Positions 12,215 through 44,964 are shown, counted from the stretch's first letter. The stretch is 64,000 bases of DNA from an uncultured delta proteobacterium (GCA_963771175.1 CAVYSY010000033.1:1-64000), one strand, 5' to 3'. A program made the numbers and translations. The notes: generated from the letters alone by a model not told the origin.

Positions 12215-12261
12215 ACCTGGGTCTCCAGGAAGCCTTGCTCGCAGTGCTATCCTCCGAGCCC

Positions 12262-13158
12262 ATGCTCCCTCCTCGGAAGCCGCTGCGCGCAGGCCATTGG
12301 GTCGTCGCATGCCTGATGATGCTCGGGCCCGCCATCGCTCCGGCCCAGGCCTCCGAGGCAAGCACCCCCGCCCTCACCGCCTCGCCTCCGGGAGCGCTGG
12401 TGGGAGTGGTGGTGGCCAGCCGGACCTTGGAGCTCGCGCCCAAGGTGGAGGGCCGCATGGAGGTGCTGAAAGTGCGCCTGGGCGAGCGCGTCTCCGCCGG
12501 TCAGGAAGTGGCCCTGCTGGAGCTGGAGCCCTTCGAGCTCGAGCTCGCCGCGCGGCTGGCCAACCTCAAGGCGGCCGAGGCCGACCAGGCCAAGAACAGC
12601 CTCCTCCTCACCCAGGCCCAGCAGCGGCTGGAGCGTGAGAAGCGCATCCGCGAGTACTCCGCCGCCGAGGCGCTGGAGATGGCCGAGACCCAGGTGGCGC
12701 TGGCACTCGCCGACGTGGAACTGGCCAAGGCCCACACCGCCGAGGCCAAGGCCCGGTTCGACCTGGCCGCCAGCAACCTCGCGAACGCACGGGTGCGCGC
12801 CCCCTTCTCCGGCGTGGTGGCCGAGGTCCTCCTTCAGCCCGGCGTGCTGGTGGGACGGACCACGCCCCTGCTGCGGCTGGTGAGCGACGAGCTGCGGCTG
12901 CGCTTCGCCGTGCCCGCGGCCCAGTCGGGCAACATCCGCCCCGGCACCGAGGTGCACGTGCGGCTGGAGGCCCTGAACATCACCGTGACGGGCACCGTGG
13001 ACAGCATCTCACCCGAGCTCGACCCGGCCTCACGACACCTGCGGGCCGAGGCGAAGCTGAACGTCCCGGCGGCCCAGCGTGGGCGCATTCCCTCTGGACT
13101 GCTCGCCCAGGTGGAGCTGCGCCCCGCCTCCGGCAACATCGCCTCGACCGTGCCCTGA
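12262..13158 (+). CDS. Efflux periplasmic adaptor (membrane fusion protein)
   Basis: Lipoyl-like half motifs (LAPKVEGRMEVLKVRLGERVSAGQ ... VRAPFSGVV), a coiled hairpin, and ISPELDPASR. Confidence 0.85.
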   Translation: MLPPRKPLRAGHWVVACLMMLGPAIAPAQASEASTPALTASPPGALVGVVVASRTLELAPKVEGRMEVLKVRLGERVSAGQEVALLELEPFELELAARLANLKAAEADQAKNSLLLTQAQQRLEREKRIREYSAAEALEMAETQVALALADVELAKAHTAEAKARFDLAASNLANARVRAPFSGVVAEVLLQPGVLVGRTTPLLRLVSDELRLRFAVPAAQSGNIRPGTEVHVRLEALNITVTGTVDSISPELDPASRHLRAEAKLNVPAAQRGRIPSGLLAQVELRPASGNIASTVP

Positions 13159-13404: not shown

Positions 13405-14793
13405 TCAGCGGCCCTGGGAGATCTTCACCTGGCCGCCCGAGAGCCGCGCCACGTCACCCGGGTTCCACTCCAGCACCTGCGTCTGGAGGCCCCGGCGCGC
13501 GAGCTCCTCGCGCATGAGTGTGTTGCGGCTGGCCTCCGTGGGCTCGCCCTCTCCCCAGCCGATGTCGGTGATGATGTGGCCCACCCCCTCGAAGCCATTG
13601 GCGTAGGGCAGGAAGTAGCGGGCCTGGGCCGCGGCGCACGCATCCACCGCGCCATCGATGCCCGCCGTGGTGCTCTTGAGCTGACCCTGCTGGAACTGCC
13701 GATATAGCCCCCGGAGCTGCTCGAAGGGCACCGCCGCCCAGTAGTGGTTCAGCCCGCCGAAGAAGGGCGACTGGAACTCACGCTGGCAGCACAGCACCAC
13801 GTCCGCCGGGCCGCGTCGCCGGCAGGACTCGGCCAGCACCTCCGCCATGCCGCCTTCCGGGTCCGCCCCGCTGTCCACCAGCAGCACGCACGAGAAGTCC
13901 TCGGTGTTGATGCGGTAGCAGTTGCCCCAGCTCCTCAGGCCCTCGCGCAGCCGGGGGCCCTCACGAGTGGGCTGCTCGCCGTAGAAGGGCAGGATGTCGA
14001 TCTCGATGTCGCCCACCTTCACCGTCTCGCCCCAGGCGGCGGCCTGGACCGACTGACCGCACGCGCGCACCGTGGCCGCGAAGTCCTGAAAGGTGAGCAG
14101 GCTCACCCGAGGCACGCGCGGCACGAGCACCGGCAGATTCGGCCGGGCCAGGTGCGCCAGGAACGAGGGCATGTGCCAGTGGTCCACGTGGCTGTGGGTG
14201 ATGGCCACCACGTCCACCATCTCCGGCCGCAGGTTGTTGGGGGCCCCGCGCATGTTCAGCAACCGGCGCTGCATGCCGATGGGGTCCACCAGGATGCCCG
14301 TTGTGCGCGAGCGGATGAGCAGCGAGGCGTGCTCGCGGCGGTAGATGCCGGGCCCGTCCGGCTCGGGCCACTGGAGCCCGGGAGTCGGAGCCTCCACGAG
14401 CCGTTCAATCCACGCCTCGTCATCGAAGGGCCAGGCCTCGCGCACCTTGCGCGGGTCGTTCGTATGGGTGGCCGCACGGAGGAACTCGGCCACCACGGGC
14501 ACCGCCTCCTCGGGCAGCTCGCTGCTCAGGCGCTCCTCCCCATCCTGGAAGACGACCCACCAGGTGCTCTTCTCGGGGAATAGCACGCGGTCCTCGACGA
14601 GGAAGCCACCGTCCTCCGCCCCCTTCGGGCGCAGCACCGGCTGGGGGAGCAGCGTGTTGGCGCGCTCGAACAGCTCCCGCGTGGCCTGGGGGTCCAGGTT
14701 CGCGCGGATCATCCCGTTGAGCAGGTCACCGAACTTCACCCCACCGAGGTCCGGCAGTGGCACCAGGTCCACGATGAAATTCGGAGAGAGCAT
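13405..14793 (-). CDS. Metallo-beta-lactamase-fold enzyme, CmlA-like; candidate lanthipeptide tailoring enzyme
   Basis: HASLLI..LVDP, ITHSHVDH (HxHxDH), PFYGEQ, LLVDSG, PYANG. It starts 7 bp after the PCAT stop. Confidence 0.8.
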   Translation of the reverse strand: MLSPNFIVDLVPLPDLGGVKFGDLLNGMIRANLDPQATRELFERANTLLPQPVLRPKGAEDGGFLVEDRVLFPEKSTWWVVFQDGEERLSSELPEEAVPVVAEFLRAATHTNDPRKVREAWPFDDEAWIERLVEAPTPGLQWPEPDGPGIYRREHASLLIRSRTTGILVDPIGMQRRLLNMRGAPNNLRPEMVDVVAITHSHVDHWHMPSFLAHLARPNLPVLVPRVPRVSLLTFQDFAATVRACGQSVQAAAWGETVKVGDIEIDILPFYGEQPTREGPRLREGLRSWGNCYRINTEDFSCVLLVDSGADPEGGMAEVLAESCRRRGPADVVLCCQREFQSPFFGGLNHYWAAVPFEQLRGLYRQFQQGQLKSTTAGIDGAVDACAAAQARYFLPYANGFEGVGHIITDIGWGEGEPTEASRNTLMREELARRGLQTQVLEWNPGDVARLSGGQVKISQGR

Positions 14794-14799
14794 TGTCGG

Positions 14800-17058
14800 T
14801 CACCCCACCTTGGCGGCCCTCTCGGGGGCCGGGCTGCCGGCACTGGTGCGCTCCTGGGAGGACACCAGCTCGAAGTAATAGCCCCGCCTGGACATCAGCT
14901 CGTCGTGCGTCCCCCGCTCGACCAGCCGGCCCTGGTTCATCACGAGGATGACGTCCGCGCCCTGGATGGTGCTCAGCCGGTGGGCGATCACCACGCGCGT
15001 GCAGCGCAGTTGCGAGAGGGCATCCTGCACGGCGCGCTCCGTCTTCGCATCCAGCGCGTTGGTGGCCTCGTCCAGCAGGAGGATGGCGGGGTTGTGCACC
15101 AGCGCCCGGGCGATGGCGATGCGCTGGCGCTGGCCACCCGAGAGCGAGACGCCCATCTCGCTGAGCACCGTCTCGTAGTTCATCGGCATGGCCACGATAT
15201 CGTCGTGCACCTGGGCGCGCTTCGCGGCATCCACCACCTGCTCCAGCGGCAGCGTGGGGTCCGAGTAGGCGATGTTGCGGCGGATGTCCCCGCGGAAGAG
15301 CGAGGGGCTCTGCAGCACCACGCCCATCTGCTGCCGCAGCTCCTGCAGGTCCATGTCCTGCAGCGACACGCCGTCATAGCGGATGGCGCCGGCGGTGGGC
15401 AGGTACAGGCCGAGCATCAGGTGAGCCAGGCTGGACTTGCCCGCGCCCGAGCGGCCGACGATGGCCACGAACTGGCCCTGCTGAATCTCCACCGACACGT
15501 CCTGCACCACCAGGGGCGCGTGGGGGCTGTAGCGGAAGGAGACGTTCTCCACCTGGATGCTGCCCTGCAGCTTGTGGGTGCGGCGCGTGGTGGCGGGCAC
15601 CTGCTCGCGCGGCGCCTGGAGCACGTCGTCCACTCGCTCCAGGTAGCTGCCCACGAGCTGGAGCTGGAAGGCGGTGGCCACCAGGTTGGAGATGGGGTTG
15701 AGGAAGCTGCCCGCCAGCGCGTTGAGCGCCAGCATCTCGCCCAGGCTCAGCGCCCCATCGAGCACCTGAAGGGTTCCCACCGCCAGGATGGCCAGCGGCG
15801 AGGCCATGCGCAGCGTGCTGGCGATGGACTCGGTGAGCGCCTGCAGGCGCCCGCGCTCCAGCGAGACGTTGAGCACGTCCACGTAGAGGTTGGACCAGTG
15901 CTGCACGGCCCGGTCCTCCAAGCCCATGGCCTTGAGCGTCTGGATGCCGGTGAACATCTCCACCTCGAAGTTCTGCGAGCTGGCGCTCACCTCGAGGTTC
16001 TTGGACATCAGCTCGCGCTGCTTGCCCCGCGCGAAGAGGAAGACGAGCACCTGCAGCAGGGCCAGCCCCACGGCCAGCAGGGCGATCTGCCAGCTCCCGG
16101 CGAACAGCAGCGCGAGGTAGACCACGACCAGGCCGCCGTCGAGTACCGCGGACAGCGCGCCCGAGGTGAGCAGCTCGCGCACGGTGGCGTTGCTGTTGAG
16201 CCGGCTCATCAGGTCGCCGGCGGAGCGCACCTGGAAGAAGGAGAACGGCAGGTGCACCAGGTGGTCCAGGAAGCCCAGCGTCAGCCGGGTATCCATCACC
16301 GTGCGCAGGTGCAGCAGCAGATGGGCACGCACCAGCGAGGAGATGAGCTGGAAGCCCACCAGGGCGCCCATGCCCGTGGCGAGAATGGCCAGCAGCGACC
16401 TGTCCCCGTTGGGCAACACCCGATCCACCACCGCCCCGGTGAGCGACGGCAGCGCCAGGGCGAAGAGCTGCAGCAGCAGCGACATCACCGCCACCCGCCC
16501 CAGGATGGCGCGCGCCTCCGACAGCAGCCGCAGGTAGCGCTCCGAGCCGCGGGCCGACGAGCCCTTCTGGAAGGACTCGGAGGGCTCGAAGAGCAGCGCG
16601 ACGCCGGTGAAGGACTTGCGGAACTGCTCCAGGGTGATGTGGCGGCGCCCGAAAGACGGATCCACCACCTGCACGCCCTTGCGCGTCAGCTTCTCGAAGA
16701 CGATGAAGTGCTTGAACTCCCAGTGCAGCACGGTGCCGGGCTCGAGCAGGTGGATCTGATCCATGTCCACCTTGGCCGCCCGTCCCAGCAGGCCGAAGCG
16801 CCGGCCGGCCTCGAGGATGCCGCGAGCGCTGATGCCCTGCGTGCTCAGCCCGGCGGCCACGTGGATCTCATCCAGCGACACCTTGCGGCCGTAGTAGCCC
16901 AGCACCATGGCCACGCACGCCGCCCCGCAGTCCACGTTGGTGACCTGCGCCACGTAGGGGATGCGCCGCTGCCGCAGCCGCTCGCCCAACCGCTGGAGCG
17001 CGGGAAAGCGCTCGCCGAGCGAGGGCGACTCGGGCGTCGGCGATTCGGAATCAGCCAC
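14800..17058 (-). CDS. lanT: Peptidase-containing ABC transporter (C39 peptidase + TMD + NBD), LanT-type
   Basis: C39 triad motifs QVTNVDCGAAC / HWEFKHF / VVDP; Walker A GRSGAGKS, signature LSGGQRQR, Walker B LLLDEAT. Confidence 0.95.
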   Translation of the reverse strand: MADSESPTPESPSLGERFPALQRLGERLRQRRIPYVAQVTNVDCGAACVAMVLGYYGRKVSLDEIHVAAGLSTQGISARGILEAGRRFGLLGRAAKVDMDQIHLLEPGTVLHWEFKHFIVFEKLTRKGVQVVDPSFGRRHITLEQFRKSFTGVALLFEPSESFQKGSSARGSERYLRLLSEARAILGRVAVMSLLLQLFALALPSLTGAVVDRVLPNGDRSLLAILATGMGALVGFQLISSLVRAHLLLHLRTVMDTRLTLGFLDHLVHLPFSFFQVRSAGDLMSRLNSNATVRELLTSGALSAVLDGGLVVVYLALLFAGSWQIALLAVGLALLQVLVFLFARGKQRELMSKNLEVSASSQNFEVEMFTGIQTLKAMGLEDRAVQHWSNLYVDVLNVSLERGRLQALTESIASTLRMASPLAILAVGTLQVLDGALSLGEMLALNALAGSFLNPISNLVATAFQLQLVGSYLERVDDVLQAPREQVPATTRRTHKLQGSIQVENVSFRYSPHAPLVVQDVSVEIQQGQFVAIVGRSGAGKSSLAHLMLGLYLPTAGAIRYDGVSLQDMDLQELRQQMGVVLQSPSLFRGDIRRNIAYSDPTLPLEQVVDAAKRAQVHDDIVAMPMNYETVLSEMGVSLSGGQRQRIAIARALVHNPAILLLDEATNALDAKTERAVQDALSQLRCTRVVIAHRLSTIQGADVILVMNQGRLVERGTHDELMSRRGYYFELVSSQERTSAGSPAPERAAKVG

Positions 17059-17998
17059 GGTCGCCTCCCCCGAGGTACTCGAGAATCGGCAGCAGCGTCA
17101 CCCAGCCGTTGCGCGCGCGCACCTTCACCCGGGCGATGCCGGGCATGCCGGTGTAATAGCTGTAGGTGCGGCCATCGGACTGGAAGGTGCTCGAGGGCAG
17201 CCTCGCCGACACCGCCACCACCGGGCCCTGCAGCATCACCGCGTCCGCCAGGCCCGGCCCCAGATAGCGCCGCACCTCGGCCGGTCCCACCAGCTCGTCA
17301 CTGATCGCCGTGACTTCCAGCTCCTGGTACTCGTAGGGAAAGCCCTCCAGCTCCAACCGGAAGCCCTGCCCCGGTTTGATCATCGGCCGGTAGCGGCCGG
17401 GCACCAGCGCCAGCGCCCAGGACTCGGAGCCGTCCCGGAGGACGGAGACCACCACCTCGCCCGCGCTCAGGAACTGACCCTCGCGCACGCGCACGTCGTT
17501 GACCTGCCCGTCGAACGGGGCCCGCAGGGAACGCTCCTCCAGGCGCGCCTGGCTCGACTCGAGCTGGGAGCGCAGGGCCGAGAGCGCCGCCTGCGCGGTG
17601 GCGTTGGAGGGATTGAGCAGCGAGGCGGCGAGCTGGTTGCGGAACTCGTGCTCCAGGCGCTCGCGCTCCCCGGACTCCACGCCCGAGTACAGCTCCACCA
17701 GCGGCTGGCCGGCCTTCACGTGCTGCCCGCGGCTCACCCACACCCGGCTCACCCGTCCACCCGCGGTGGCGGTAACGTCCTCCAGGCCCTTCACCCGCAC
17801 CAGCAGCGGGCCCTCGGCGTAGTCGTTGATGTCGATGAGAGCCAGACCCACGCCCCCCACCACCACGAGCGCCACGACAATCCAATACGCACTGCGCGCC
17901 CACACCGGCGAGAGCTGGAGCAGGCTGCCCCGGGCCTCGGGCCGAGCATGGTGCGTCAGCGCTTCCTGCCGGAAGAGCTGCTGCGGGTTGTCGCTCAT
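17051..17998 (-). CDS. HlyD-family secretion adaptor
   Basis: LFRQEAL N-terminus, single TM, lipoyl-like halves (TAGGRVSRVWVSRGQHVKAGQPL ... LRAPFDGQV). Overlaps the lanB stop and the lanT start. Confidence 0.85.
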   Translation of the reverse strand: MSDNPQQLFRQEALTHHARPEARGSLLQLSPVWARSAYWIVVALVVVGGVGLALIDINDYAEGPLLVRVKGLEDVTATAGGRVSRVWVSRGQHVKAGQPLVELYSGVESGERERLEHEFRNQLAASLLNPSNATAQAALSALRSQLESSQARLEERSLRAPFDGQVNDVRVREGQFLSAGEVVVSVLRDGSESWALALVPGRYRPMIKPGQGFRLELEGFPYEYQELEVTAISDELVGPAEVRRYLGPGLADAVMLQGPVVAVSARLPSSTFQSDGRTYSYYTGMPGIARVKVRARNGWVTLLPILEYLGGGDRG

Positions 17999-20900
17999 GT
18001 CCCCTTCTTCATCCGCGCCAGACGCGAACGATACAGCCGCACCAGGAAGTCATGGAAGATGAGCTCCTGGGCCCGCTGGTCCTCCACCATCATGCGATTG
18101 ATGTGCATGTGGAGGTAGCTGTCGGCCAGCCGCTCGACAGGCACGGAGAGACGTCCCTCGCGCTCGGCTTGGAGCAGGCGCTCCACCACCGGGCGTAGCC
18201 GCTCGCTCCGACGTCTCAGGGCCACCAGCCCCGCCTGGGCCAGGCCCCGGGCATCCGGCGGCGCCGTCAGCAGCGTCTCCAGGCTCCGGCTCTCGCGGCG
18301 GTAGCGCTGGCCGAGCTGCTCCTCGAAGCGCTTGTCCACCCAGAACTCGGCATGGAAGGCGGCGCGGGCGCGCTCCTCCACGGCCAGCTTGCCCTCCAGC
18401 GTCAGCCCCAGGTCGTCCAGCAGGGCGTCCATGCCCTTGAGGACCATGCGCCAACGCAGCTCGGCGCCCGCGTCACCGGGGTAGGCCTGGAGCATGGCCA
18501 GCACGGCCTCGCTGTCCGCTGTGAAGAGTTCCTCGGACAGCTCGACGCCGACGGGGCCGCCGTAGCGCTCCACCTCGCGCTCGTAGGTGTCGAGCTGCAC
18601 GCGCCAGCCCGTCCCCTCCTCCAGACTGGCCGCGCAGGCGGCGCGCAGCGCGGGCCACACCTCCGCGTCCAGCCGCGCGGGCGTCCCGTGGAAGCGCAGC
18701 CGCACGTGCTCCTCGGGGTCCTTGTAGCGGAGGAAGAACCAGCGGTCCGCCGCACCCGAGCCCATCACCTTCTGGATGGCCTCGCCCAGCGTGCTGCCCA
18801 TCAGCCGGTCCAGGGAGGCCGCGCCCCCGTAGAGCTTGAGGTACAGCCACTCGGAGCCGGGCGGGAATCGGCGGGGGGTGGAGCGCGGCACCGGCGCCGG
18901 AGCCGGGCGGGCCGGCTGCTCGGCGGGGGCCTGACGCACGAAGGGCACCACCACCTCGTGTACGTAGCGACCCTCCCTGCCCTCCACACACAGCGCGTCG
19001 GGCCCGGGGAAGAGCTCGTCCAGCAGGATACGCGAGCGTCCCTTCACGAGCTGGACGAACGTCTCCACGCTCAACGCGTTGTCCAGGTCCACGGGGAGCT
19101 GGTTGTCACCATCGCGCAGGCTCACCCACCGGGGCAGCCTCGCCTTCGCACGGAAGCGCTGCACGGCGGCGAAGCGCGGAGCGCCCTCGGTCTCGCCCCA
19201 CTCCCGCAGCGTCTTCCCGTCCACGGCCCAGCACGCCAGCGAGAGCACCGTCCGGCCACACACCACGCGCGGCAGGAAGTTGGCGTGACTCAGGGGCCCC
19301 CACTGGAATTTCAGGCCCATGCGGTGCGGGTTCTGCAGCATGCAGAGGAAGCGGTACACGCCCAGGCCGTACGCCGAGTAGTTGTGCGCGTTGGTCAGCC
19401 GGGGGATGACCTCCTTGCCCAGCCGTTGCGAGCGCAGCACCACGCGGGTGCCCTCGACGGAGACCCACAGGTCCGTCAGCGCGATGCGCTCCAGCCCGTC
19501 CGCGCCCGACTCCCCGAGGAAGGCGATGTCATGGGGCCGCAACCGGGGCCGGCAGATGACGTTGCCCATGCGGCCCTGCGGCAGGTGGACGATCTCCGCG
19601 AAGATGGCGTCCGGCCGCAGCGCCTCCTCGGCGCGCAGGTGCTCGCGAACGAAGCCATCCAGCGCCTCGTCCCCGTGACAGAAGCGCCCCAGGTAGATGG
19701 CGCCCGAGGGGCCATGGAGGTTCTCCAGCGCCACCTGGAACTCGCCCCGGTCCACCGCCTCCGCGGAGCTCGCCACCACCGTGCCCACCACTCCGAAAGC
19801 ATCCGGCAGCGGGCACGGCTCCGAGGTCTTCATCGCCGCCAGGTCCTCGGCGGTGAGCACCAACTCGTGCCCTCCGGTGGCCCAGAGGGACTCCAGCCGG
19901 CGCAGCAGGTGCTTGTAGCGGGGCTCCCAAGTCACCTGCTCGCCACCGCCACCGCCCTCCTGGGGGAAGTGGAAGCCCGCCAGCAGCGGGCCCGTGGCCA
20001 TGCCCGGCGACCTGGAGACGGCGAAGCCGATGCCGCTCTCCTCGTCCAGCGCCTCCACCAGCGGCACCGAGCGGCCCTCGTAGCGCTCCAGGAAGCGGGA
20101 CGCGGAAGCGGTTGAGCGGATGGTCCTCGCGATTGGGCGGGGTGATGGACCGCAGCACCTGGACGCCGTGCAGCAGCGCGTCCACCACGCGCGAGGAGAG
20201 GCTGGCCTCGGGCGCCGGGCGGAACATGTCCACCTGGAAGAGGCGGGGCAGCTCAACGGGCGTGGGCAACGCCTCCAGGCCACGTGCCACCTCGAGGTAC
20301 GCCGTCGGCGCGTTGCCCGGGCCCCCGAGTCCAGTCGGGACAGCTGCTCGTGGACGCCCGTCAGCCGCTGTCGCACCTCGGCCAGCCCGGGGATGCTCGC
20401 GCGAGCCCTCGATGAGGTGGGGCACGGGCTCGGCGCCGGTGACGGGCGCGGCCCAGGTGGGCACCAGGAGCTGCTCGGATACCAGCGTCTCCACGAAGGG
20501 GCGGGCATCCTCCAGGGTGATGTCGGGATCGCTCGCCACCAGCGCGACCGCCAGCTCCTCCAGCTTCGCGCCACCGCGGGCCCGCTCCAGCGTGGCCTCC
20601 AGGTAGGGCGAGGGCTCCACGCCCACCAGGTGGTAGGAGCGATCGCGCCCGCGCACCCGCATCTCCAGGTAGCGCAGCCGGCCACCGGAGCGGTAGAGGC
20701 TGGAGTTGGGCACGTAGCGCAGGGCGTCTCGCACCTCGGGGGTGCCGCGCACCTGCTCCACCAGGGCGCAGACGTAGTCCATGTCCAGCCGCGTGTGGCG
20801 GCGGATGGCGGTGCGCTCGGAGATGTGCAGCCGGGTGTGGGGGCCGATGCGGCCCACGGAGTTGCCGGCGAAGAGGCCGAAGGGCGTGGCGCGACCCGCC

Positions 20901-21229
20901 ATGCGCGCGAAGTAGCGCACCAGGGTCCGCTCCACCTTCTGCCCGCGCTCCGACTCCGGCGCGGACTCCCAGGCGGACAGGCTCTCGTCGAGCACCGGCG
21001 AGGCGATGAAGAGGGCCTCGCGCACCACGGGGTCCGCCACCTGGCGGCGCAGCCGCTCGCGCAGCACGAGCCGATCCCTCTTCAGCGCCTCCTCGAGCTG
21101 CGTCCCGGAGGCCGTGGCCGCGCCGAGCTCCCGAGCCCACTCCACCAGGGCCTCGAAGGGAAGCAGCGGGGTGCGGAAGGCAAAGAATCCCGACGGGGCG
21201 AAGGCCGGCAACGGTCGGGCTTCGTTCAT
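17995..21229 (-). CDS. lanB: Class I lanthipeptide dehydratase, full length (about three frameshifts near 20,400, 20,330 and 20,100)
   Basis: Glutamylation domain: FAFRTPLLP, RYFARMAGRATPFGLFAG, GRFCH, AEIVHLP..RMGNV..RP, PRLTNAHN. Elimination domain: EWLYLKLY, WFFLRYKDPEEHVRLRF, YEREVERYGG, SYLHMHINR. Confidence 0.92.
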
Positions 21230-21378
21230 GGAATCGGTCACGATGGCGACACCCGAAGAGCGAGCCTGGAGAGAGCCGAAGGATTCCACGGTGCTCGCTC
21301 GGGCATCAATGCAAGGGCGGAACAATCCCCACCGGCCTTGCTTCGGGGGAGCATCGGGAGGCTCACCGACCGCGGACC

Positions 21379-21422
21379 AAAAAAAACTGCTCCAGAGGGG
21401 AACGGAGCACCCTCTGGAGCAG
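21379..21422 (-). terminator. Intrinsic terminator/attenuator between lanA and lanB
   Basis: Perfect 13-bp stem CTGCTCCAGAGGG / CCCTCTGGAGCAG with a 10-nt loop, followed on the minus strand by T8. Confidence 0.85.
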
Positions 21423-21514
21423 CGTGCCGCAATGACCTGGGCGAGGAGACTCGCGGCGGCCAGGCGACGGCCCCACCTGGGAGCGACAGCCCTCCCGGGC
21501 GACAGGCGAACTCC

Positions 21515-21676
21515 TTACTCCGCGATGGTGATCATGGTCAGGGGGCAGCCACCGGTATCGGTACCACCCACCACGCCATCGAGAAGGGAGACCTCGGAGT
21601 CATTCAGGGTCTTCAGCGTCTCCTTCTTGAGGGACAGCTTCTTGTTCAGCTTGGGCTCGTTGGTCTTGTTGTCCAT
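21515..21676 (-). CDS. lanA: Lanthipeptide precursor peptide (53 aa)
   Basis: MDNKTNEPKLNKKLSLKKETLKTLNDSEVSLLDGVVGG-TDTGGCPLTMITIAE; GAGGAG RBS, LxLxKx5L motif, double-Gly site; lies between lanC and lanB. Confidence 0.9.
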   Translation of the reverse strand: MDNKTNEPKLNKKLSLKKETLKTLNDSEVSLLDGVVGGTDTGGCPLTMITIAE

Positions 21677-21749
21677 GACTTGCTCCTCGCTTCGCGGGGG
21701 CTGTGAACGAAAAGCCGGCTTGCCCGAAATCACCGCTCACAGTGAAAAG

Positions 21750-21803
21750 AAAATAAGTAGAACTATCCAGGCAGTCAAGCAGGCTACTGATTGCCTGCCT
21801 GGA
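21750..21803 (-). promoter_or_regulatory. Putative sigma70 promoter of lanA with an overlapping inverted repeat
   Basis: Minus strand TTGACT-17 nt-TATTTT. Inverted repeat TCCAGGCAGTCAA (21766-78) / TTGCCTGCCTGGA (21791-803). Confidence 0.55.
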
Positions 21804-21835
21804 AGGATCACCGAGCAGGAAATCCAGGAGAGCCT

Positions 21836-23155
21836 TCACGTGCCGGACGTAGTGCACGCGAGGGTCGCCCATCCGCATGAGCCAGGCCCCTGCTTGGAGA
21901 TCCGCTCAGGCGTGAGCGAGAAGAGGAAGGCCTGGTCCCAGTCCGGCTCGAGGTCCGAGACGGCGGCGATGAGAGCGAGCGCCGTCCCGGCGGCGCCGAA
22001 CTGGAGAGCGGCCACGGCGCGCTCCGGCTCCTGTCCGAACTGTCCGAGCAGGTAGCCCCCAACGCCGACGCCGGGCTGGCGCAGGGCCAGCGTGTGCCGC
22101 AACCAGAGCACGGCGGCCTCTTCGAAGACAGGCACGCCGGAGGCGCGGAACAGCCGGTGGAAGACGTGGGCAGTGCCCGACGTGCCACAGCACAGGTTGG
22201 CACTGCGCGGCAGGGGCTGGTCCAACGCCTCGCGCGCCACCGCGATGGCCCACGCCAGCGTGCGGGCCTGCCATTCGGGGTGGCCCCACACCCGGGCGGC
22301 CCACCACAGCACCCCGACGATGCCGGGATTGCCGGCACACCAACTGAAGCGCGCGTAGGGGTCGGCGAAGGGCTCATCCCCGTGCAGGTAGAAGGGAAAT
22401 CGCGGAGGGCCCTCCGGCCGGGCCTGGCGCGCCACCCACCGGAAACCCTTCTCGAGCAGGGCCTGGGCCCGCTCCCGGGCCACCCCGTGCGCATGGGCCG
22501 CCGCGAGCACGGCGAGCACGACGGGCACCCCGTGGGCCACGCCCATCATGTACAGGCCCCGGGGGAAGGCGGCCTCGCGCCCGAGGAGGGCCCAGTGGGA
22601 CGGCGGCATGGGCCAGGAGCTGCCGTCGTCGAGGGGCTGGGCCAGTTCCTCCAGCGTCTCCACCACGCGCTCCAGCAGCCGGCGCCCGGAGGGATGGGGC
22701 ATGCGCTCGAGGGCATACAGCCCGAGGCCCGCCAGTCCATCGCGGATGTCACAGGGATGCGGGAAGGGCGAGCGGCCCAGCTCCCGCTCCACCAGCTCGT
22801 CCGTGGCCGCACACAGCTCCTCCACGTCCAGGCCGGGGTGGTTCGCGGCGATGCGGGCCGCCGCCCAGCCCACGCCACTCAAGCCCACGTGAAGGCCGAG
22901 CACGGGCTTGCGCTCGCGGGCGAGGACGAAGAGTTCCGTGGCCCGCTCCAGGCAGACGCCCACCTCGTCCAACAGGCGCGAGTCGGTTGCCCGGGAGGCC
23001 ATGTCGAAGAAGAGCGCGAAGCCGGCATGGCCCGACAGGAGGCCCGCGGGCAGCTTCTCCCGGGGGGTGGCGACCACGTCCGCGACGATGTCCCGGATGG
23101 CCTCCAGGGCTTCCGTCTGGAGGGAACCGGAGAGCAACGGGGTCCAGGTGCGCAT
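21836..23155 (-). CDS. lanC: Lanthionine cyclase LanC
   Basis: GLHVGLSG, DIRDGLAG, GVAHG, SWCAGNPG, NLCCGTSG, GAAG repeats of the LANC-like barrel. Confidence 0.92.
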   Translation of the reverse strand: MRTWTPLLSGSLQTEALEAIRDIVADVVATPREKLPAGLLSGHAGFALFFDMASRATDSRLLDEVGVCLERATELFVLARERKPVLGLHVGLSGVGWAAARIAANHPGLDVEELCAATDELVERELGRSPFPHPCDIRDGLAGLGLYALERMPHPSGRRLLERVVETLEELAQPLDDGSSWPMPPSHWALLGREAAFPRGLYMMGVAHGVPVVLAVLAAAHAHGVARERAQALLEKGFRWVARQARPEGPPRFPFYLHGDEPFADPYARFSWCAGNPGIVGVLWWAARVWGHPEWQARTLAWAIAVAREALDQPLPRSANLCCGTSGTAHVFHRLFRASGVPVFEEAAVLWLRHTLALRQPGVGVGGYLLGQFGQEPERAVAALQFGAAGTALALIAAVSDLEPDWDQAFLFSLTPERISKQGPGSCGWATLACTTSGT

Positions 23156-23201
23156 GGGTCAGACGCAGACGAAGGGAATGGGCCTTGGCGCTTCCATGAG
23201 T

Positions 23202-23861
23202 TTACACGAAATTCCGATTCCGAATCGACCCGCCCAGGCCGCGCACCAGCAGCGCCAGGTTGGCGAGGACGAAGGTCAGCAGCACCAACGCCACCAGGAG
23301 CACCCCCCGGTCCGCACCGGGCCGCTCCCCTTCCACGATGAGCCACAGCCGCCCGTCCTGGGGCTGCACCTCCCCCATCTCCCGCAGCAACGTGAAGCCC
23401 TCGCGGTAGCGCTCCGCGTCCGCCTCGGCCAGGAGCCGCCCCCTGACGCCGAAGGGTCGCTGATCTGGCTGACGTGGCGCCCTCCCCGGAGCCCACTCCT
23501 CACCCGGGAGCGCTCGTCGGCGCACGAGGAACGGTGAGTCGCGCAGCCCCACCACCACGTACACGTCCTCGCCCTCGCGGCCGTAGGCGCCTCGGGCGGT
23601 GGGGATGCCATGCACCTGGACGTAGCGGTTGGACGCCAGGAGCTCGTAGCGGTACGCGCCCTCGGCTCCCAATGTGAGCGGCGTGCGCGGCGAGAAGAAG
23701 TACGCCAGGTCCTTCCTGAGCATCCCCAGCAGCGCCCCACCCACCAGGATCGCGAGCACGGCCACCGGGGCCTTCACCCCCACCCCGCGCCGCCGCTGGC
23801 GCGCCTCCAGCTCGGCGATGCGCCGATCCCGCTCCTGCTGCAGCTCCGAGTCGTTGGACAT
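23202..23861 (-). CDS. Hypothetical membrane protein
   Basis: Intact 219-aa ORF with N- and C-terminal TM helices, directly downstream of cdnL. Confidence 0.7.
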   Translation of the reverse strand: MSNDSELQQERDRRIAELEARQRRRGVGVKAPVAVLAILVGGALLGMLRKDLAYFFSPRTPLTLGAEGAYRYELLASNRYVQVHGIPTARGAYGREGEDVYVVVGLRDSPFLVRRRALPGEEWAPGRAPRQPDQRPFGVRGRLLAEADAERYREGFTLLREMGEVQPQDGRLWLIVEGERPGADRGVLLVALVLLTFVLANLALLVRGLGGSIRNRNFV

Positions 23862-23928: not shown

Positions 23929-24423
23929 CTAGGCGAGATTGAAGATCTTCTTCAGATCCGACTCGACCTCATCCTCGGAGCAGTCCTTGGCGAGCGACAG
24001 CTCCTTGATCAGCAGCGAGCGCGCGGTATCCAGCATCTTGCGCTCACCGAAGGACAGATCCTTGTCGCCCTTCAGAAGGTAGAGGTCACGAAGCACCTCG
24101 GCGATCTCGAACACGGATCCCGTCTTGATCTTCTCCATGTACTCCCGGTAGCGACGGTTCCACGTCGTGGAGTCGACCGAGATGTCCTTCTCCTTCAGGA
24201 TGGAGTAGACCTGCTTGACGTCGTCCTCGCTGATGATCTCCCGGAGGCCGACCGAGCCCACCTTGTTGATTGGGATCATGATCCGCATCCCATTCTCCAG
24301 GATGCGCAGCACGTAGAAGGACTGGCGCTGCCCAGCGACTTCGGTGTGCTCAATCCCCATGACTTCGCCAACGCCCTGCCCGGGGTACACCGCTTTGTCG
24401 CCGGTCTTGAAGCTCGTCTGCAC
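23929..24423 (-). CDS. cdnL: CarD_CdnL_TRCF-family RNA polymerase-binding factor CdnL
   Basis: 164 aa, FKTGDKAVYPGQGVGEV...TWNRRYREYMEKIKTG...KDLSFGERKML; matches myxobacterial CdnL as I recall it. Confidence 0.93.
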   Translation of the reverse strand: MQTSFKTGDKAVYPGQGVGEVMGIEHTEVAGQRQSFYVLRILENGMRIMIPINKVGSVGLREIISEDDVKQVYSILKEKDISVDSTTWNRRYREYMEKIKTGSVFEIAEVLRDLYLLKGDKDLSFGERKMLDTARSLLIKELSLAKDCSEDEVESDLKKIFNLA

Positions 24424-24621: not shown

Positions 24622-27110
24622 ATGGTGGGCCGATACTCGTGGCGTGATCTGACCGCGCGTCCTCTCTTCTTCCCCGCCGTGAGCCTCCTACTTGGCGCGG
24701 GGTTGGGCTCGAAAACGAGCGTTGTCGCCGGATTATTCCAGCTAATGGCCGCCTTGGCCGTGGGCATCGCCTCCCTTTGGCTCGCTCGCCTGCCTGGTGC
24801 CCATCTGGGCGTGCTCCTGTGCCTCGGGCTCTCCGGAGCCGGATTGGCCGCCCTGGAGGCGGGAGCCGATGTGCCGCGCGCACTCCAAGAAGGTGGCACC
24901 GCGGTGCTGGAGGGCGAGGTGGAGCGCGTGGAACACTTCGAGGACTCCACCCGCCTCCTGGTGGCGGTGGCCCGCGTGGGAAAAGGAGCCGGGACGCCCG
25001 CCCGCTTCCACGCGAGCCTCTACGCCCAGGGTGAGCCCCCCTCGCTGCTGCCCGGCCAGCGCGTCCGCGTGGAGGCCAGGCTCAAGCCGCTCGAGTCCGC
25101 GCTGAACCCCGGAGAAAAGGATTTATCCGCAACACGGCGACGACAGGGGCTCGTCTTCACCGGCAGCTTCCCGTCCGCGGGGCTGCTGGTGCTGTCCCCG
25201 CCCTCGGGCTGGCGCCAGGAGCTGGTGCGCACGCAGGCGGGGCTCTCCGAGGCGCGTGCGCGCCGTGGCTCCGTCGGCGGATTCCGCGGCCCTCTTCCTC
25301 ACCCTGGCCGCCGGGGCAGCGCGCCGCGCTCGATGATGACCTGGAGGAGGACTTCTCCCGAAGCGGACTCGCGCACGTGCTCAGCGTGAGCGGGCTGCAC
25401 GTGGCGGCGCTCGCGCTCATGACGCTGGCCCTGCTGCGCCGATTGCTCGTCCTGGCCGGGTCGCGGCTGCGGAGCCTGCGGCGCGTGGATGCCCGCCGGC
25501 TGGCCGCCCCCGCCTCGGTGCCCTTCGTCTGGGCCTATGTCGTCTTCACCGGCAACCAGCCGCCCGCGGTGCGCTCGGCGGTGATGGCCACGGTGGTGCT
25601 GCTGGGGCTCGCGCTCTGGCGGCGGGCCGATGGGCTCAACAGCCTCGCCGCCGCCGCCGCGCTGCTCGTGGCCTGGGCGCCCTCCAGCGTCGCGGACCTG
25701 TCGCTGCAACTGTCCTTCCTCGCCGTCTTCAGCCTGCTGCTGCTCACCCCCGCCCTGCGCGAGGCCGTCCCCCTCGCTCCTCCCGACCCGCGCGAGTCCC
25801 ACCGGCTGAAGCGCCTGCTCGCGAGCACCCGGGAGACGGTGCTGGAGACGTTCTGCGCGAGCCTCGCGGTGACGGTGGCCAGCATTCCCCTGGTGGCCGG
25901 CACCTTCGGTCGCGCGAGCCTCGCGGGGCTCATCTCCAACATCGTCTGCATGCCGCTGTGCGGACTGCTCACCGGGTTCGCGGCCGGTGGCGCGGCCCTC
26001 TACGTGGTGGCGCCGGTGCTGGCCACGCCGCTGCTGTGGGGCGGAGCGTGGGTCTCACAGTTGCTCCTGGTGTTCACCCGCTTCTTCGCACACGTGCCGC
26101 TGGCCACGGTGGACCTGCCCACCTTCGGCACCGCGGCCACCCTGCTCTACGCCGCGGGGCTCGCGTGCTGGGCCCTGGGCGAGCGGCGCTGGCGCCTGGG
26201 CGGGCTGCTCGCGCCCGTGGGCGTGGCGCTCGTCGTGCTCGTGCCTCGCCTCACTCCCGAGCCCGGGCTGCGCATCACCTTCCTCTCCGTGGGTCAGGGG
26301 GACTCGGTGCTGCTCAGCTCCCGGGGGCACCATGCCCTCGTCGATGGCGGGGGTGTGCCCGGCGGCGCGGACCCGGGGCTCCGCGTCGTCGTCCCCTTCC
26401 TGCGCGCCTCGCGCATCGAGCGGCTCGACCTCGCCGTCCTCTCCCATCCGCATCCGGACCATGCGCTCGGGCTCATCTCCACGCTGGAGCAGGTGCCCAC
26501 CGAGCGCCTCTGGCTCTCCGCCGACAGCGCGGACGGGCACCTGTCCCGGAAGCTCGTGGCCGCGGCCTCCGGCGCTCTCGTGGAGGAGGTGCAGCTCGGT
26601 CATCCGTCCTACGCCCTGGGCGAGGCGACCCTGGAGGTGCTCGGCCCGCCCGAGGACCGCGAGTTGATGGAGGGCGTGAATGACAAGAGCGTGGTGTTCC
26701 TCGTGCGCCACGGCGACGTCACCGTGCTGCTCCCCGGCGACGTGGAGGAAGAGGGCGAGGCCGCGCTCCTCGCGAGTGGACGGCTCGGGCCGGTGACGGT
26801 GCTGAAGGCGCCGCACCACGGCTCGCGCACCTCGTCCTCGGAGGAGTTCCTCGAACGGCTGCGCCCGCGCTACGTCGTCTTCTGCGTGGGCCGCCGCAAC
26901 CGCTTCGGCTTCCCCCACCCCGAGGTGGAGGAGCGCTACCGGACCCTGGGCACCGAGTGCCTGCGCACGGACGTCCACGGCGCCATCACGCTGGAGAGCG
27001 ATGGGCACGACATCCGACTGAGCACCTTCCTGACTCCAGAGGCCCCGGCTCCCGAGGCTCCGGTCGCCTCGCGCTCCGAGCCTCGAGACGGGCTTCGGCC
27101 CGAGCACTGA
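24622..27110 (+). CDS. comEC: ComEC/Rec2 DNA-uptake protein (frameshifts near 25,250-25,370)
   Basis: HVLSVSGLHV, PAVRSAVM, SLQLSF, then a C-terminal MBL domain (SVGQGDS, SHPHPDH, NDKS, HHGSRTSS). Confidence 0.9.
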
Positions 27111-40705: not shown

Positions 40706-41614
40706 TCAGCAGCCCGCCTCCACGGGTCCAGGCTCCGGCAACCGCGGCAGCGAGCCCAGGCCCCACGGCTGCCCGGCCCGCCACGACACCTCGCCCGAGA
40801 TGCCCCACCCGGCGCACACCACCTCGCGGCCCCGGAACTCCATCCAGAACACCGACTCGTCGGGCCTCGCCGCCTGATCCAGGCACACCACGCGCGTGGG
40901 GTGCCTCCCACCATGGCCCCCGAGCGACACCGCGAAGGCCCGGTGCGAGTGCCCGCACAGCACCCACTTCGGGTGCGTCGTCTCCACCAGCCGCCGGGTG
41001 ATGGGGTTGCCAATCCAGTACGACGGCAACGTGCGGCCCGGCGGCGGCTCCCCCTGCTCCCGGACCCGCTGCGGCAGGCCCCTCGGCCACTCGTGCACCA
41101 ACATCAGGTCCACGTCCCGTAGCGCCGACACCTTCTCCACCTCGGGCGCGCGGAAGTAGCCGGCCTGCTTCGCCGTGTCGAGCGAGCGCGGCCGCTTCAA
41201 GGGCTGCTCGTAGAAGCGCGGCGCGTGGATGCCCGACAGGTACCCCACCCGCAGCCCGTGCAGCACCTTCAGGCCCGCGCGCCCCAGGTAGTGCACGTTC
41301 GGCGCGAGCAGCAGACCCTCCGGCGAGTCGTGCAGCGCCTCGAAGTCCTCGTTGTTGCCGGCGATGAAGTACAGCGGCCGCTTCATCGTCCGCACGCCAT
41401 CCGCGTACTCGGCGAACTCGGCGGGCATGGCGCGCTTGGCCGTCTTGCGCCGGTGGTCGTCCGCGTGCCGGAAGGCCTCCACGTCCCCTACCGCCAGCAC
41501 CAGGTCCACCGGACGGCCCCGCGCCTCCGCCAACGCGTCGAGCCATGACTCCACGCGGTGGAAGCGACCGTGGATATCTCCCACACCGGCGACCAGGAGA
41601 GAATCCGGAGCCAT
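40706..41614 (-). CDS. Calcineurin-like metallophosphoesterase, Dbr1-like
   Basis: GDIHG, AVGD, FIAGNNE, LAPNVHYLGRAG, LSGI, HEWP, GHSH. Confidence 0.85.
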   Translation of the reverse strand: MAPDSLLVAGVGDIHGRFHRVESWLDALAEARGRPVDLVLAVGDVEAFRHADDHRRKTAKRAMPAEFAEYADGVRTMKRPLYFIAGNNEDFEALHDSPEGLLLAPNVHYLGRAGLKVLHGLRVGYLSGIHAPRFYEQPLKRPRSLDTAKQAGYFRAPEVEKVSALRDVDLMLVHEWPRGLPQRVREQGEPPPGRTLPSYWIGNPITRRLVETTHPKWVLCGHSHRAFAVSLGGHGGRHPTRVVCLDQAARPDESVFWMEFRGREVVCAGWGISGEVSWRAGQPWGLGSLPRLPEPGPVEAGC

Positions 41615-41683
41615 GATGCCCACCACCCTGCCCCGGGGCGCGTTCCCTGTCGAGCGGGATCTCCCCGCGCTGTGTCAAAAATG

Positions 41684-41713
41684 AAAAGGGGCGCCCCACG
41701 CGGGAGCGCCCCC
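41684..41713 (-). terminator. Intrinsic terminator after the large lipoprotein gene
   Basis: GGGGCGC...GCGCCCC stem followed by a T-tract on the minus strand. Confidence 0.55.
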
Positions 41714-44697: not shown

Positions 44698-44964
44698 TGC
44701 AGCCTCCACCAGACCGGCGCCCGCACGGCTCGCGCGCTCACCAGCCATACCTGGGGTGAGGGTCTCTGCAACCTCGGGGCCGAGGAGAAAGGACTGCCCA
44801 CTGACGCGACAAGTCGCGGGACTCTTGGGAAAACTCTTGGACTCGCGGGAGACGCAACCTGCCCCGCGGTCCCCCTCTTCTGAAAAGACTTCCGGAGTGC
44901 CCGACAGGCGACGGGTAAAAACCGGAACCCCCCGGGAGAAGAAAGGGAACCACGAACTCCCGGT

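Follow-up and report, generated by a model that had tools for sequence, protein, structure and literature searches.

What does the lanthipeptide gene cluster at positions 13,405 to 23,155 of a 64,000-nucleotide stretch of DNA from an uncultured delta proteobacterium (GCA_963771175.1, CAVYSY010000033.1:1-64000; hereafter the window) make, and what part does its protein of metallo-beta-lactamase (MBL) fold play? The synthetase proteins LanB and LanC are encoded here along with a precursor peptide, LanA, a membrane-fusion protein, a C39-peptidase ABC transporter (PCAT) and the MBL-fold protein. The reading that we favour, with confidence somewhat better than even, is of a functional class I lanthipeptide operon of the type with a Gly-Gly (GG) leader and a PCAT, in which the cluster is a reduced copy, the break in lanB is an artefact and the MBL-fold protein is a peptide oxygenase. 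The genes are as follows.

23155..21836, minus strand: LanC, 439 aa, PF05147 (E 2e-25)
21676..21513, minus strand: lanA, precursor of 53 aa, from translation
21325..19529 and 20685..17995, minus strand: open reading frames (ORFs) of LanB, split over two frames, PF04738 and PF14028
17998..17051, minus strand: HlyD-family membrane-fusion protein, PF16576 and PF13437, translationally coupled to LanB and PCAT
17058..14800, minus strand: PCAT, PF03412, PF00664 and PF00005
14793..13405, minus strand: two-domain MBL-fold protein, 462 aa, PF12706

An earlier note on this DNA had described six co-oriented genes, overlapping or abutting from lanB to the MBL gene, and both coordinates and junctions agree with it. 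As read in the sequence, the LanB stop overlaps the HlyD start by 4 nt (ATGA), the HlyD stop overlaps the GTG start of PCAT by 8 nt, and a gap of 6 nt leads from the PCAT stop to the MBL start. The G+C content falls to 65% around lanA. Pfam scans of the genes at 9.3-27.1 kb gave no LanP, no LanI/LanFEG, no LanRK or classical regulator and no peptidase-free LanT, in line with the note's statement that immunity gene and regulator are missing.

The precursor is a 38-residue leader with a VVGG end followed by a 15-residue core, TDTGGCPLTMITIAE, containing four Thr and one Cys (Cys6). Since the core has a single Cys, the product can have one thioether ring at most, just as expected of the singly cyclised peptide proposed earlier. 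The leader only just passes the NCBIfam model lant_leader_L1a (NF038153), scoring 22.6 bits where 22 are required (E 8.7e-5, over residues 4-32), and its LxLxKx5L motif reads LSLKKETLKTL. In an alignment of 13 LanAs (A2) the leader pattern is conserved, K13, L14, K18, L32, V35, V36, G37 and G38 being invariant, and the cores are hypervariable and unalignable. These cores are hydrophobic and beta-branched with an acidic end. Taken with the missing immunity genes, these features would fit, but do not establish, the signalling or surface-active role suggested in the earlier note.

The nature of the MBL-fold protein was addressed by profile and structure comparison. Searched against the PDB, a profile of 30 family members (alignment A1) retrieved FrsH (8a90, 'non-heme diiron monooxygenase') at 8.8e-12 and CmlA (4jo0) at 3.4e-10, the next match being NAPE-PLD at 5e-4. 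AlphaFold models the protein confidently (pLDDT 92.9), and Foldseek again places FrsH and CmlA at the top, with values from 2.5e-17 to 1.6e-16, the best hydrolase-type protein following at 3.9e-11. The same two come first in VIA-align, and they are the sole structures to align over both domains. In the ESM Atlas the third set of matches carries the Pfam domain CmlA_N (score 0.96).

The putative metal ligands point the same way. Residues H200, H202, D204 and H205 (HxHxDH) are invariant in A1 and align to THNHQDH of CmlA, while E273, the invariant Glu of LPFYGEQ, falls on the Glu of LPFLGEH in CmlA and of LPSYGE in FrsH. According to PMC7846560, Glu377 of CmlA is the residue that, in MBL-fold proteins binding Fe, takes the place of the fourth His, and CmlA is without the last MBL His, having Ala482 there. 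Position 379 in the CmlA SEQRES numbering would, from its motif, be this Glu377. No invariant His follows residue 207 in A1. Asp403 is said to have been described by Makris in 2010 as a CmlA ligand. To assess conservation more broadly, the best 80 of 203 relatives in species-representative genomes were fetched and joined by six further loci and the window, giving 87, of which L131, L138 and L144 were set aside because their MBL alignment fell short of 250 columns. In all 84 family members that remained, the six columns of putative ligands (H200, H202, D204, H205, E273 and D307) are conserved.

Together these comparisons suggest that the protein is probably a CmlA/FrsH-like diiron oxygenase that tailors a peptide. 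The 'MBL enzyme' of the earlier note, if read as a hydrolase, is probably wrong, the CmlA/FrsH oxygenases resembling the protein more. Several observations nonetheless weigh against an oxygenase. The motif conservation is partly by construction, since LPFYGEQP and HxHxDH were the patterns used to find loci L071-L150; the conserved columns independent of the search are D307, H155, D170, D262 and D331 only. Compared with CmlA (chloramphenicol) and FrsH (FR900359), the MBL-fold non-heme diiron beta-hydroxylases (PDB 4jo0, 5kik, 8a90), the window protein is about 70 residues shorter, has 17-21% identity in structural alignments, and gives no match to Pfam CmlA_N (PF18456) in its N-terminal 150 aa even at E 10. 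The aminoacyl-carrier substrate of CmlA and FrsH is absent here, there being no domains of nonribosomal peptide synthetases (NRPS) among the ORFs scanned at 9.3-27.1 kb; with no carrier protein encoded alongside, the enzyme would act on a ribosomal peptide. Nor does the cluster show an evident reductase partner. Finally, no target residue common to all MBL-associated cores was found. All 11 MBL-linked class I cores of myxobacteria have Thr as their first residue and E, Q or N as their last, and E is also the last residue of the MBL-less cores of G013; the peptides are closely related to one another. The LanM-linked cores are unlike the class I ones, those of Nostoc ending ...KIKW and those of Archangium being Cys-rich.

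The most serious alternative, though an unlikely one, is that the protein is a metal-dependent hydrolase: a peptidase trimming the exported peptide or degrading the leader, an esterase, or an enzyme of self-protection. Its naming is all on that side, since the family appears in the databases solely as 'MBL fold metallo-hydrolase' or UlaG (224 matches) and Pfam yields Lactamase_B families only, and the cluster has no recognisable immunity gene. Yet, in Foldseek as in the profile search, every hydrolase trails FrsH and CmlA by 6-8 orders of magnitude, no hydrolase aligns across both domains as these two do, and the change of His to Glu among the ligands is tied, in PMC7846560, to Fe-binding members. 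Leader removal, moreover, is already supplied by the C39 domain, and relatives of the protein occur in NRPS clusters (below), for which CmlA-type hydroxylases are the known precedent (PMC7794379, which also reports a band at 300-400 nm for FrsH).

Whether the operon can make its peptide here depends on the state of lanB. The details are these, G011 being another genome whose LanB is intact.

20103..21232, minus strand: N-terminal part of LanB (glutamylation domain), first frame, PF04738 profile positions 1-311, 88% identical to G011 LanB
17995..20101, minus strand: C-terminal part of LanB (rest of the glutamylation domain and elimination domain), second frame, PF04738 profile positions 216-648 and PF14028 1-255, 90% identical to G011 LanB
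20101..20396: three single-base indels relative to the intact, 91%-identical G011 orthologue, +1 near 20101/2, -1 at 20318 and +1 near 20394/6
21871..21804, minus strand: remnant of an LLM-class oxidoreductase gene ('LanO'), 68 nt, 22 codons, aligning to residues 123-145 of the G011 LLM protein

Both halves of LanB, glutamylation and elimination, are represented across the two pieces, with E-values of 3e-63 and 2e-92 for PF04738 and 2.5e-66 for PF14028. The +1 near 20396 together with the -1 at 20318 puts 26 codons out of frame, and the +1 near 20102 is uncompensated. Public contigs of four sequencing runs (X1, X2, X3 and X21, of which X2 and X3 come from a second study) were compared with the window over 19000-22000. 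The state at all three sites is that of G011 in each of the three runs that cover them (X1, X2 and X3; two studies), X21 having almost no cover. X1 provides a single 33.5-kb contig across the region, with 19 substitutions and 11 gap letters. Elsewhere in the window, on the plus strand, ComEC is split into DUF4131 (24622..25389) and Competence plus Lactamase_B (25377..27110), with +1 insertions relative to G011 at 25254 and 25316, probably the same kind of assembly error. A further pair of +1 insertions relative to G011 lies at 41698/41732, between the ORFs 40706..41626 and 41737..44748. The assembly itself is 81.7% complete, in 58 contigs. Since the indels are absent from G011 and X1-X3 and similar paired insertions occur elsewhere in the window, the break in lanB is quite probably an assembly error and not the sign of a dead gene. 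The earlier note had implied the split in referring to a 'repaired LanB' but overlooked that it is likely an artefact.

The break is not, however, the only irregularity, as is seen when the window proteins are mapped on 18 fetched loci of relatives. Of 17 other genomes of the genus, 16 have LanB homologues, with at most five matches each, the top matches all being without internal stops; within the genus and family to which the window belongs (Myxococcota), the class I type with GG leader and PCAT is a common one. In G011, the nearest relative, the order is up-219 (a gene of the window's flank described below), rSAM, LanC, LLM, three lanA, LanB, HlyD, PCAT and MBL, with a convergent membrane-fusion protein and FHA-domain protein. 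Here rSAM stands for a RiPP-maturation radical-SAM C-methyltransferase of 879 aa (TIGR03975, 591 bits; RiPP, a peptide made by the ribosome and modified after translation) and LLM for an LLM-class oxidoreductase of 298 aa (TIGR03558, 216 bits), the 'LanO' of a 2014 paper discussed below. The window, compared with G011, has no B12-rSAM methyltransferase gene, with a clean junction at 23184, and has one lanA copy to the three of G011; of the LLM gene only the remnant is left, 130 nt upstream of lanA. Intact LLM genes are found in L011, L012, L017, L052, L054, L075, L077 and L078, the gene being present in G011, G012, G013 and the Corallococcus loci, and the rSAM gene in G011 and G140. Because these relatives carry the LLM and rSAM genes, the state in the window is taken to be derived by loss: on comparative grounds the cluster descends, in reduced form, from an ancestor with more genes, a point that the earlier note overlooked. 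X1 shares the reduced layout, with a single lanA and an LLM remnant, and has an intact LanB.

Might the operon then be decaying, with LanB truly frameshifted, LLM lost and no lanthipeptide made? We consider this quite improbable, although the two frames of LanB in the assembly, the undoubted deletion remnant of LLM, the single lanA and the missing rSAM gene would all fit. There are also reasons for caution over the artefact. X1-X3 are near-identical to the window but may be other strains, X1 differing by its 19 substitutions in 3 kb, so that lanB may be a strain-specific pseudogene; real decay, in the shape of the LLM remnant, lies close by; and pairwise dN/dS is blind to recent inactivation. 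Against decay stand the absence of the LanB indels from all three covering near-identical data sets and from G011, the paired insertions in ComEC and near 41698/41732, perhaps in another gene of the window, which point to assembly error, and the pairing in X1 of reduced layout with intact LanB. LanC, HlyD, PCAT, MBL and a second membrane-fusion protein (MFP2, below) are all intact in the window. Measured against G011, LanB has a dN/dS of 0.31-0.33 and the cluster genes span 0.23-0.39, no different from the 0.20-0.67 obtained for the seven genes used for comparison, namely ComEC plus six ORFs located at 27-45 kb. Because the break in lanB is likely an artefact, the pathway should neither be dismissed nor be 'repaired' by guesswork; the correct frame is given by the intact G011 orthologue or by X1-type sequence.

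For a functional operon, a course of events can be proposed that makes use of two candidate signals around lanA.

21778..21750, minus strand: sigma-70-like promoter match upstream of lanA, a consensus match only, the sole one in 11 kb (0.1 expected in shuffles)
21409..21388, minus strand: terminator-like hairpin and T8 run between lanA and lanB, from a consensus scan only (five sites found, 2.8 expected in shuffles)

The lanA gene would be transcribed from its own promoter, and partial read-through of the hairpin terminator would give the translationally coupled lanB, hlyD, PCAT and MBL genes. LanB would glutamylate Thr residues of the core and eliminate the glutamate to leave dehydrobutyrine (Dhb), and LanC would join Cys6 to one Dhb, most simply that from Thr3 or Thr1, in a single methyllanthionine ring. 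By analogy with its structural relatives, the MBL protein would act as an iron-dependent oxygenase and oxidise the peptide, most likely by hydroxylation. The C39 domain of PCAT would cleave after Gly38 and PCAT would export the product with HlyD, MFP2 and an outer-membrane channel. Should Thr1 be dehydrated, the peptide would be left, once the leader is removed, with an N-terminal 2-oxobutyryl group, by analogy with Pep5-type peptides. The LLM-type reductases of other lanthipeptide pathways produce D-amino acids.

How far the MBL family keeps company with lanthipeptide genes was examined first in the taxonomic family, where full-length orthologues are present in 14 of 150 other genomes. Matches extend to 81 genomes, those beyond the 14 being to a paralogue about 38% identical in the core. 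In 12 of 13 fetched orthologue loci LanB and/or HlyD-PCAT lie within the stretch. More widely, neighbours were scored by tblastn within about 10 kb at the 83 retained loci other than the window, with these results.

LanB: 19 of 83
LanM: 26, mostly cyanobacterial
LanKC-like: 1
NRPS: 7
PCAT only: 4
None of these: 26, many of them short contigs or the distant paralogue

LanB or LanM is found within 10 kb at 45 of the 83, among them loci of Acidobacteriota, Cyanobacteriota, Bdellovibrionota and Pseudomonadota and one metagenome-assembled genome of Actinomycetota. According to Pfam, a Bryobacterales locus has the order LanC-LanB-MBL, and a class II locus of Nostoc (L109, 4685-17852) has three Nif11 precursors, LanM, MBL and a 2-oxoglutarate (2OG)-Fe(II) oxygenase, with PCAT nearby; the Nostoc precursors have hydrophobic cores with KIKW or CGKW ends. 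That the MBL gene is a mere neighbour of the operon, acting on some other substrate and without a role in lanthipeptide maturation, can be given very little credence: although at 26 of the 83 loci the queries used reveal neither a lanthipeptide gene nor one for NRPS or PCAT, and the 38%-identical paralogue sits outside obvious clusters in the majority of genomes of several genera, short contigs account for many of the 'none' loci, the MBL start is 6 nt past the PCAT stop, PCAT and MBL are likewise adjacent in G011, G012, G140, G156, G167, G107 and G099, and the association with LanB or LanM recurs in several phyla.

The paralogue itself has about 500-650 aa, is about 38% identical over residues 145-361 and is carried by almost all genomes of several genera in the family; examples outside any obvious biosynthetic cluster are L148-L150 (Myxococcus) and G054:C1:2535002-2535649.

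Other associations, again from Pfam, are with nonribosomal pathways. Loci of Burkholderia and Collimonas (L086, L088-L090, L092) share a conserved order of thioesterase, MBL, cupin_8/JmjC and NRPS, and in Sorangium (L099) the MBL gene accompanies polyketide synthase (PKS)/NRPS genes, cupin_8 and MbtH. In a quick tree (SH-aLRT, 74 rows) LanB-linked and LanM-linked members are mixed in both main clades, with the NRPS-linked ones falling into two small clades in their midst. We would go further only as a conjecture, and one whose chances we place short of even: among the CmlA/FrsH diiron oxygenases the window protein may found a branch that modifies peptides, an enzyme family that would have passed between ribosomal and NRPS pathways. 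It would carry out an oxidative modification (beta-hydroxylation is the simplest guess) on lanthipeptides made by LanB/LanC or LanM, its divergent N-terminal domain being re-used to bind the peptide in place of a carrier protein. Were the protein indeed an oxygenase of ribosomal peptides, it would represent a new family of post-translational modification enzymes for RiPPs, and a documented case of a tailoring fold common to ribosomal and nonribosomal peptide pathways. Counting class I and class II together, lanthipeptide synthetases have a CmlA/FrsH-like MBL protein as neighbour in at least five phyla.

Is any of this new? The earlier note had called the union of class I enzymes, GG leader and PCAT unusual. 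The gene set is present as it described, but the combination is already in print, for myxobacteria among others. Walker 2020 (PMC7268733) describes class I LanAs, of Bacteroidetes, with LxLxKx5L in place of FxLD, many of them Gly-Gly-ended, and with a C39 protease in the cluster. Singh & Sareen 2014 (PMC3951391) describe a 'type IA + C39 LanT' cluster of Corallococcus coralloides with LanB, LanC, LanO and a double-glycine precursor, and list Cystobacter fuscus with the same gene set. The window has in common with these types a full-length LanB with LanC, a precursor of the form LxLxKx5L...GG and a PCAT in the cluster. It differs in the loss of LLM (the LanO/LLM gene of the 2014 myxobacterial clusters being reduced here to the remnant), in its one short, single-Cys core and in having CCG and not CHG in LanC. 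Two Corallococcus loci (L077 and L078) have the same gene set as the window cluster, MBL and MFP2 included. The 2014 and 2020 descriptions (PMC3951391; PMC7268733) are bioinformatic only. The cluster type is thus known from genome mining, and the window holds one more uncharacterised member.

From nisin-type systems (NisABTCIPRKFEG) the distance is greater. LanB with glutamylation and elimination domains, LanC and a ribosomal precursor are shared, but no LanP, peptidase-free LanT, LanI/LanFEG or LanRK was seen in the Pfam scans, the leader has a GG end and no FxLD, and export would be by PCAT and two HlyD-type adaptors, as expected of a diderm. Our literature search brought up no class I lanthipeptide of a myxobacterium that has been characterised by experiment, so the description of the pathway as uncharacterised in this group holds. 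A class II peptide of Archangium violaceum is given as the first characterised deltaproteobacterial lanthipeptide in PMC9576775. A class I cluster of Aetherobacter (PMC11876861) has a different architecture and was not used.

What appears to be new is the link of an MBL family, CmlA/FrsH-like in sequence and fold, to lanthipeptide synthetases of two classes. The searchable literature, with subscription journals outside its scope, contained no relevant mention of an MBL or CmlA-type enzyme in lanthipeptide or RiPP clusters. The word 'lactamase' has no occurrence in the main texts of PMC3951391 and PMC7268733, and PF12706, PF00753, PF13483 and Lactamase_B have no entry in one supplement file of the latter. 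Cluster-encoded oxidation of lanthipeptides does have precedents in the Fe/2OG Asp beta-hydroxylases CinX and DurX and the flavin sulfoxidase GarO (PMC12186529) and in CoiH, of a sulfoxide-forming family with a novel fold lacking a metal site (bioRxiv 10.64898/2026.08.26.747419), the searched text of which likewise has no 'lactamase'. All have an accessory role like that proposed for the MBL protein, but their folds and cofactors are unrelated to it and none is MBL-fold.

Among the remaining proteins of the operon, LanC has the motifs GVAHGVP, SWCAGNPG and NLCCGTSG, the last with CCG where CHG is usual, so that its metal motif reads Cys-Cys-Cys and the third ligand is Cys, not His. The Cys of WC and those of CCG are taken to be Zn ligands by analogy with NisC and ProcM; a three-Cys metal site is a feature of ProcM-type LanM enzymes. 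CCG is common to the readable LanCs at 51-87% identity (L011, L012, L017, L077 and L078), the stretch lying outside the alignment in L075, and the more distant LanCs of the genus have LCHG. One CCG-type and one CHG-type LanC occur in a single cluster of G012.

PCAT carries all its domains in one protein: PF03412 at residues 33-161 (1e-32), PF00664 at 190-455 and PF00005 at 519-667. Its best NCBIfam match is TIGR03796, the equivalog for NHLP-type bacteriocin exporters, at 630 bits against a cutoff of 853; it is related to that equivalog but is not a member. On either side of the operon lie the following genes.

12235..13158, plus strand: MFP2, second HlyD-family membrane-fusion protein, PF13437/PF16576, TIGR01730 at 121 bits
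11093..12214, plus strand: FHA-domain protein, PF00498, 20 nt upstream of MFP2
23861..23202, minus strand: up-219, 219 aa, between LanC and CdnL
24423..23929, minus strand: CdnL/CarD, from the Pfam scan

These coordinates place the block, as the earlier note had it, between an FHA/MFP pair and the cdnL locus. The note overlooked, however, that the convergent MFP2 belongs with the cluster. Homologues of MFP2 adjoin the cluster in L012, L017, L021, L028, L049, L050, L052, L054, L056, L057, L059 and many of L071-L100, and in L079, L085, L087 and L100 form a co-directional MFP2-HlyD-PCAT triple. Because of this company MFP2 is counted with the exporter, of which, by its conserved position, it is probably a part despite being convergent with the operon. 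The FHA gene is a more doubtful member since it is conserved only in G011, where the orthologue adjoining MFP2 (L049) is 81% identical; with the window FHA as query it was not found in the other loci. Likewise up-219, which matches no family in Pfam or NCBIfam scans, is treated as flank because in G011 the rSAM gene sits between it and LanC.

Two observations concern the precursors. At window position 21532 the window has T where the near-identical X1 contig has C, changing LanA residue 49 from Ile to Val (core ...TMVTIAE), either through strain variation or through an error in the window assembly. Some relatives of the cluster have Cys-free cores: TITVTIKVSAE and TVRVTIEISISADAQ in L050 of G140 (17415-17772), and the 8-residue TKWWTKLQ in L081 (3634-3744). 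There is no LanC beside these in the stretches examined (G140/L050 and L081), and LanB in such relatives may make dehydrated, uncyclised peptides.

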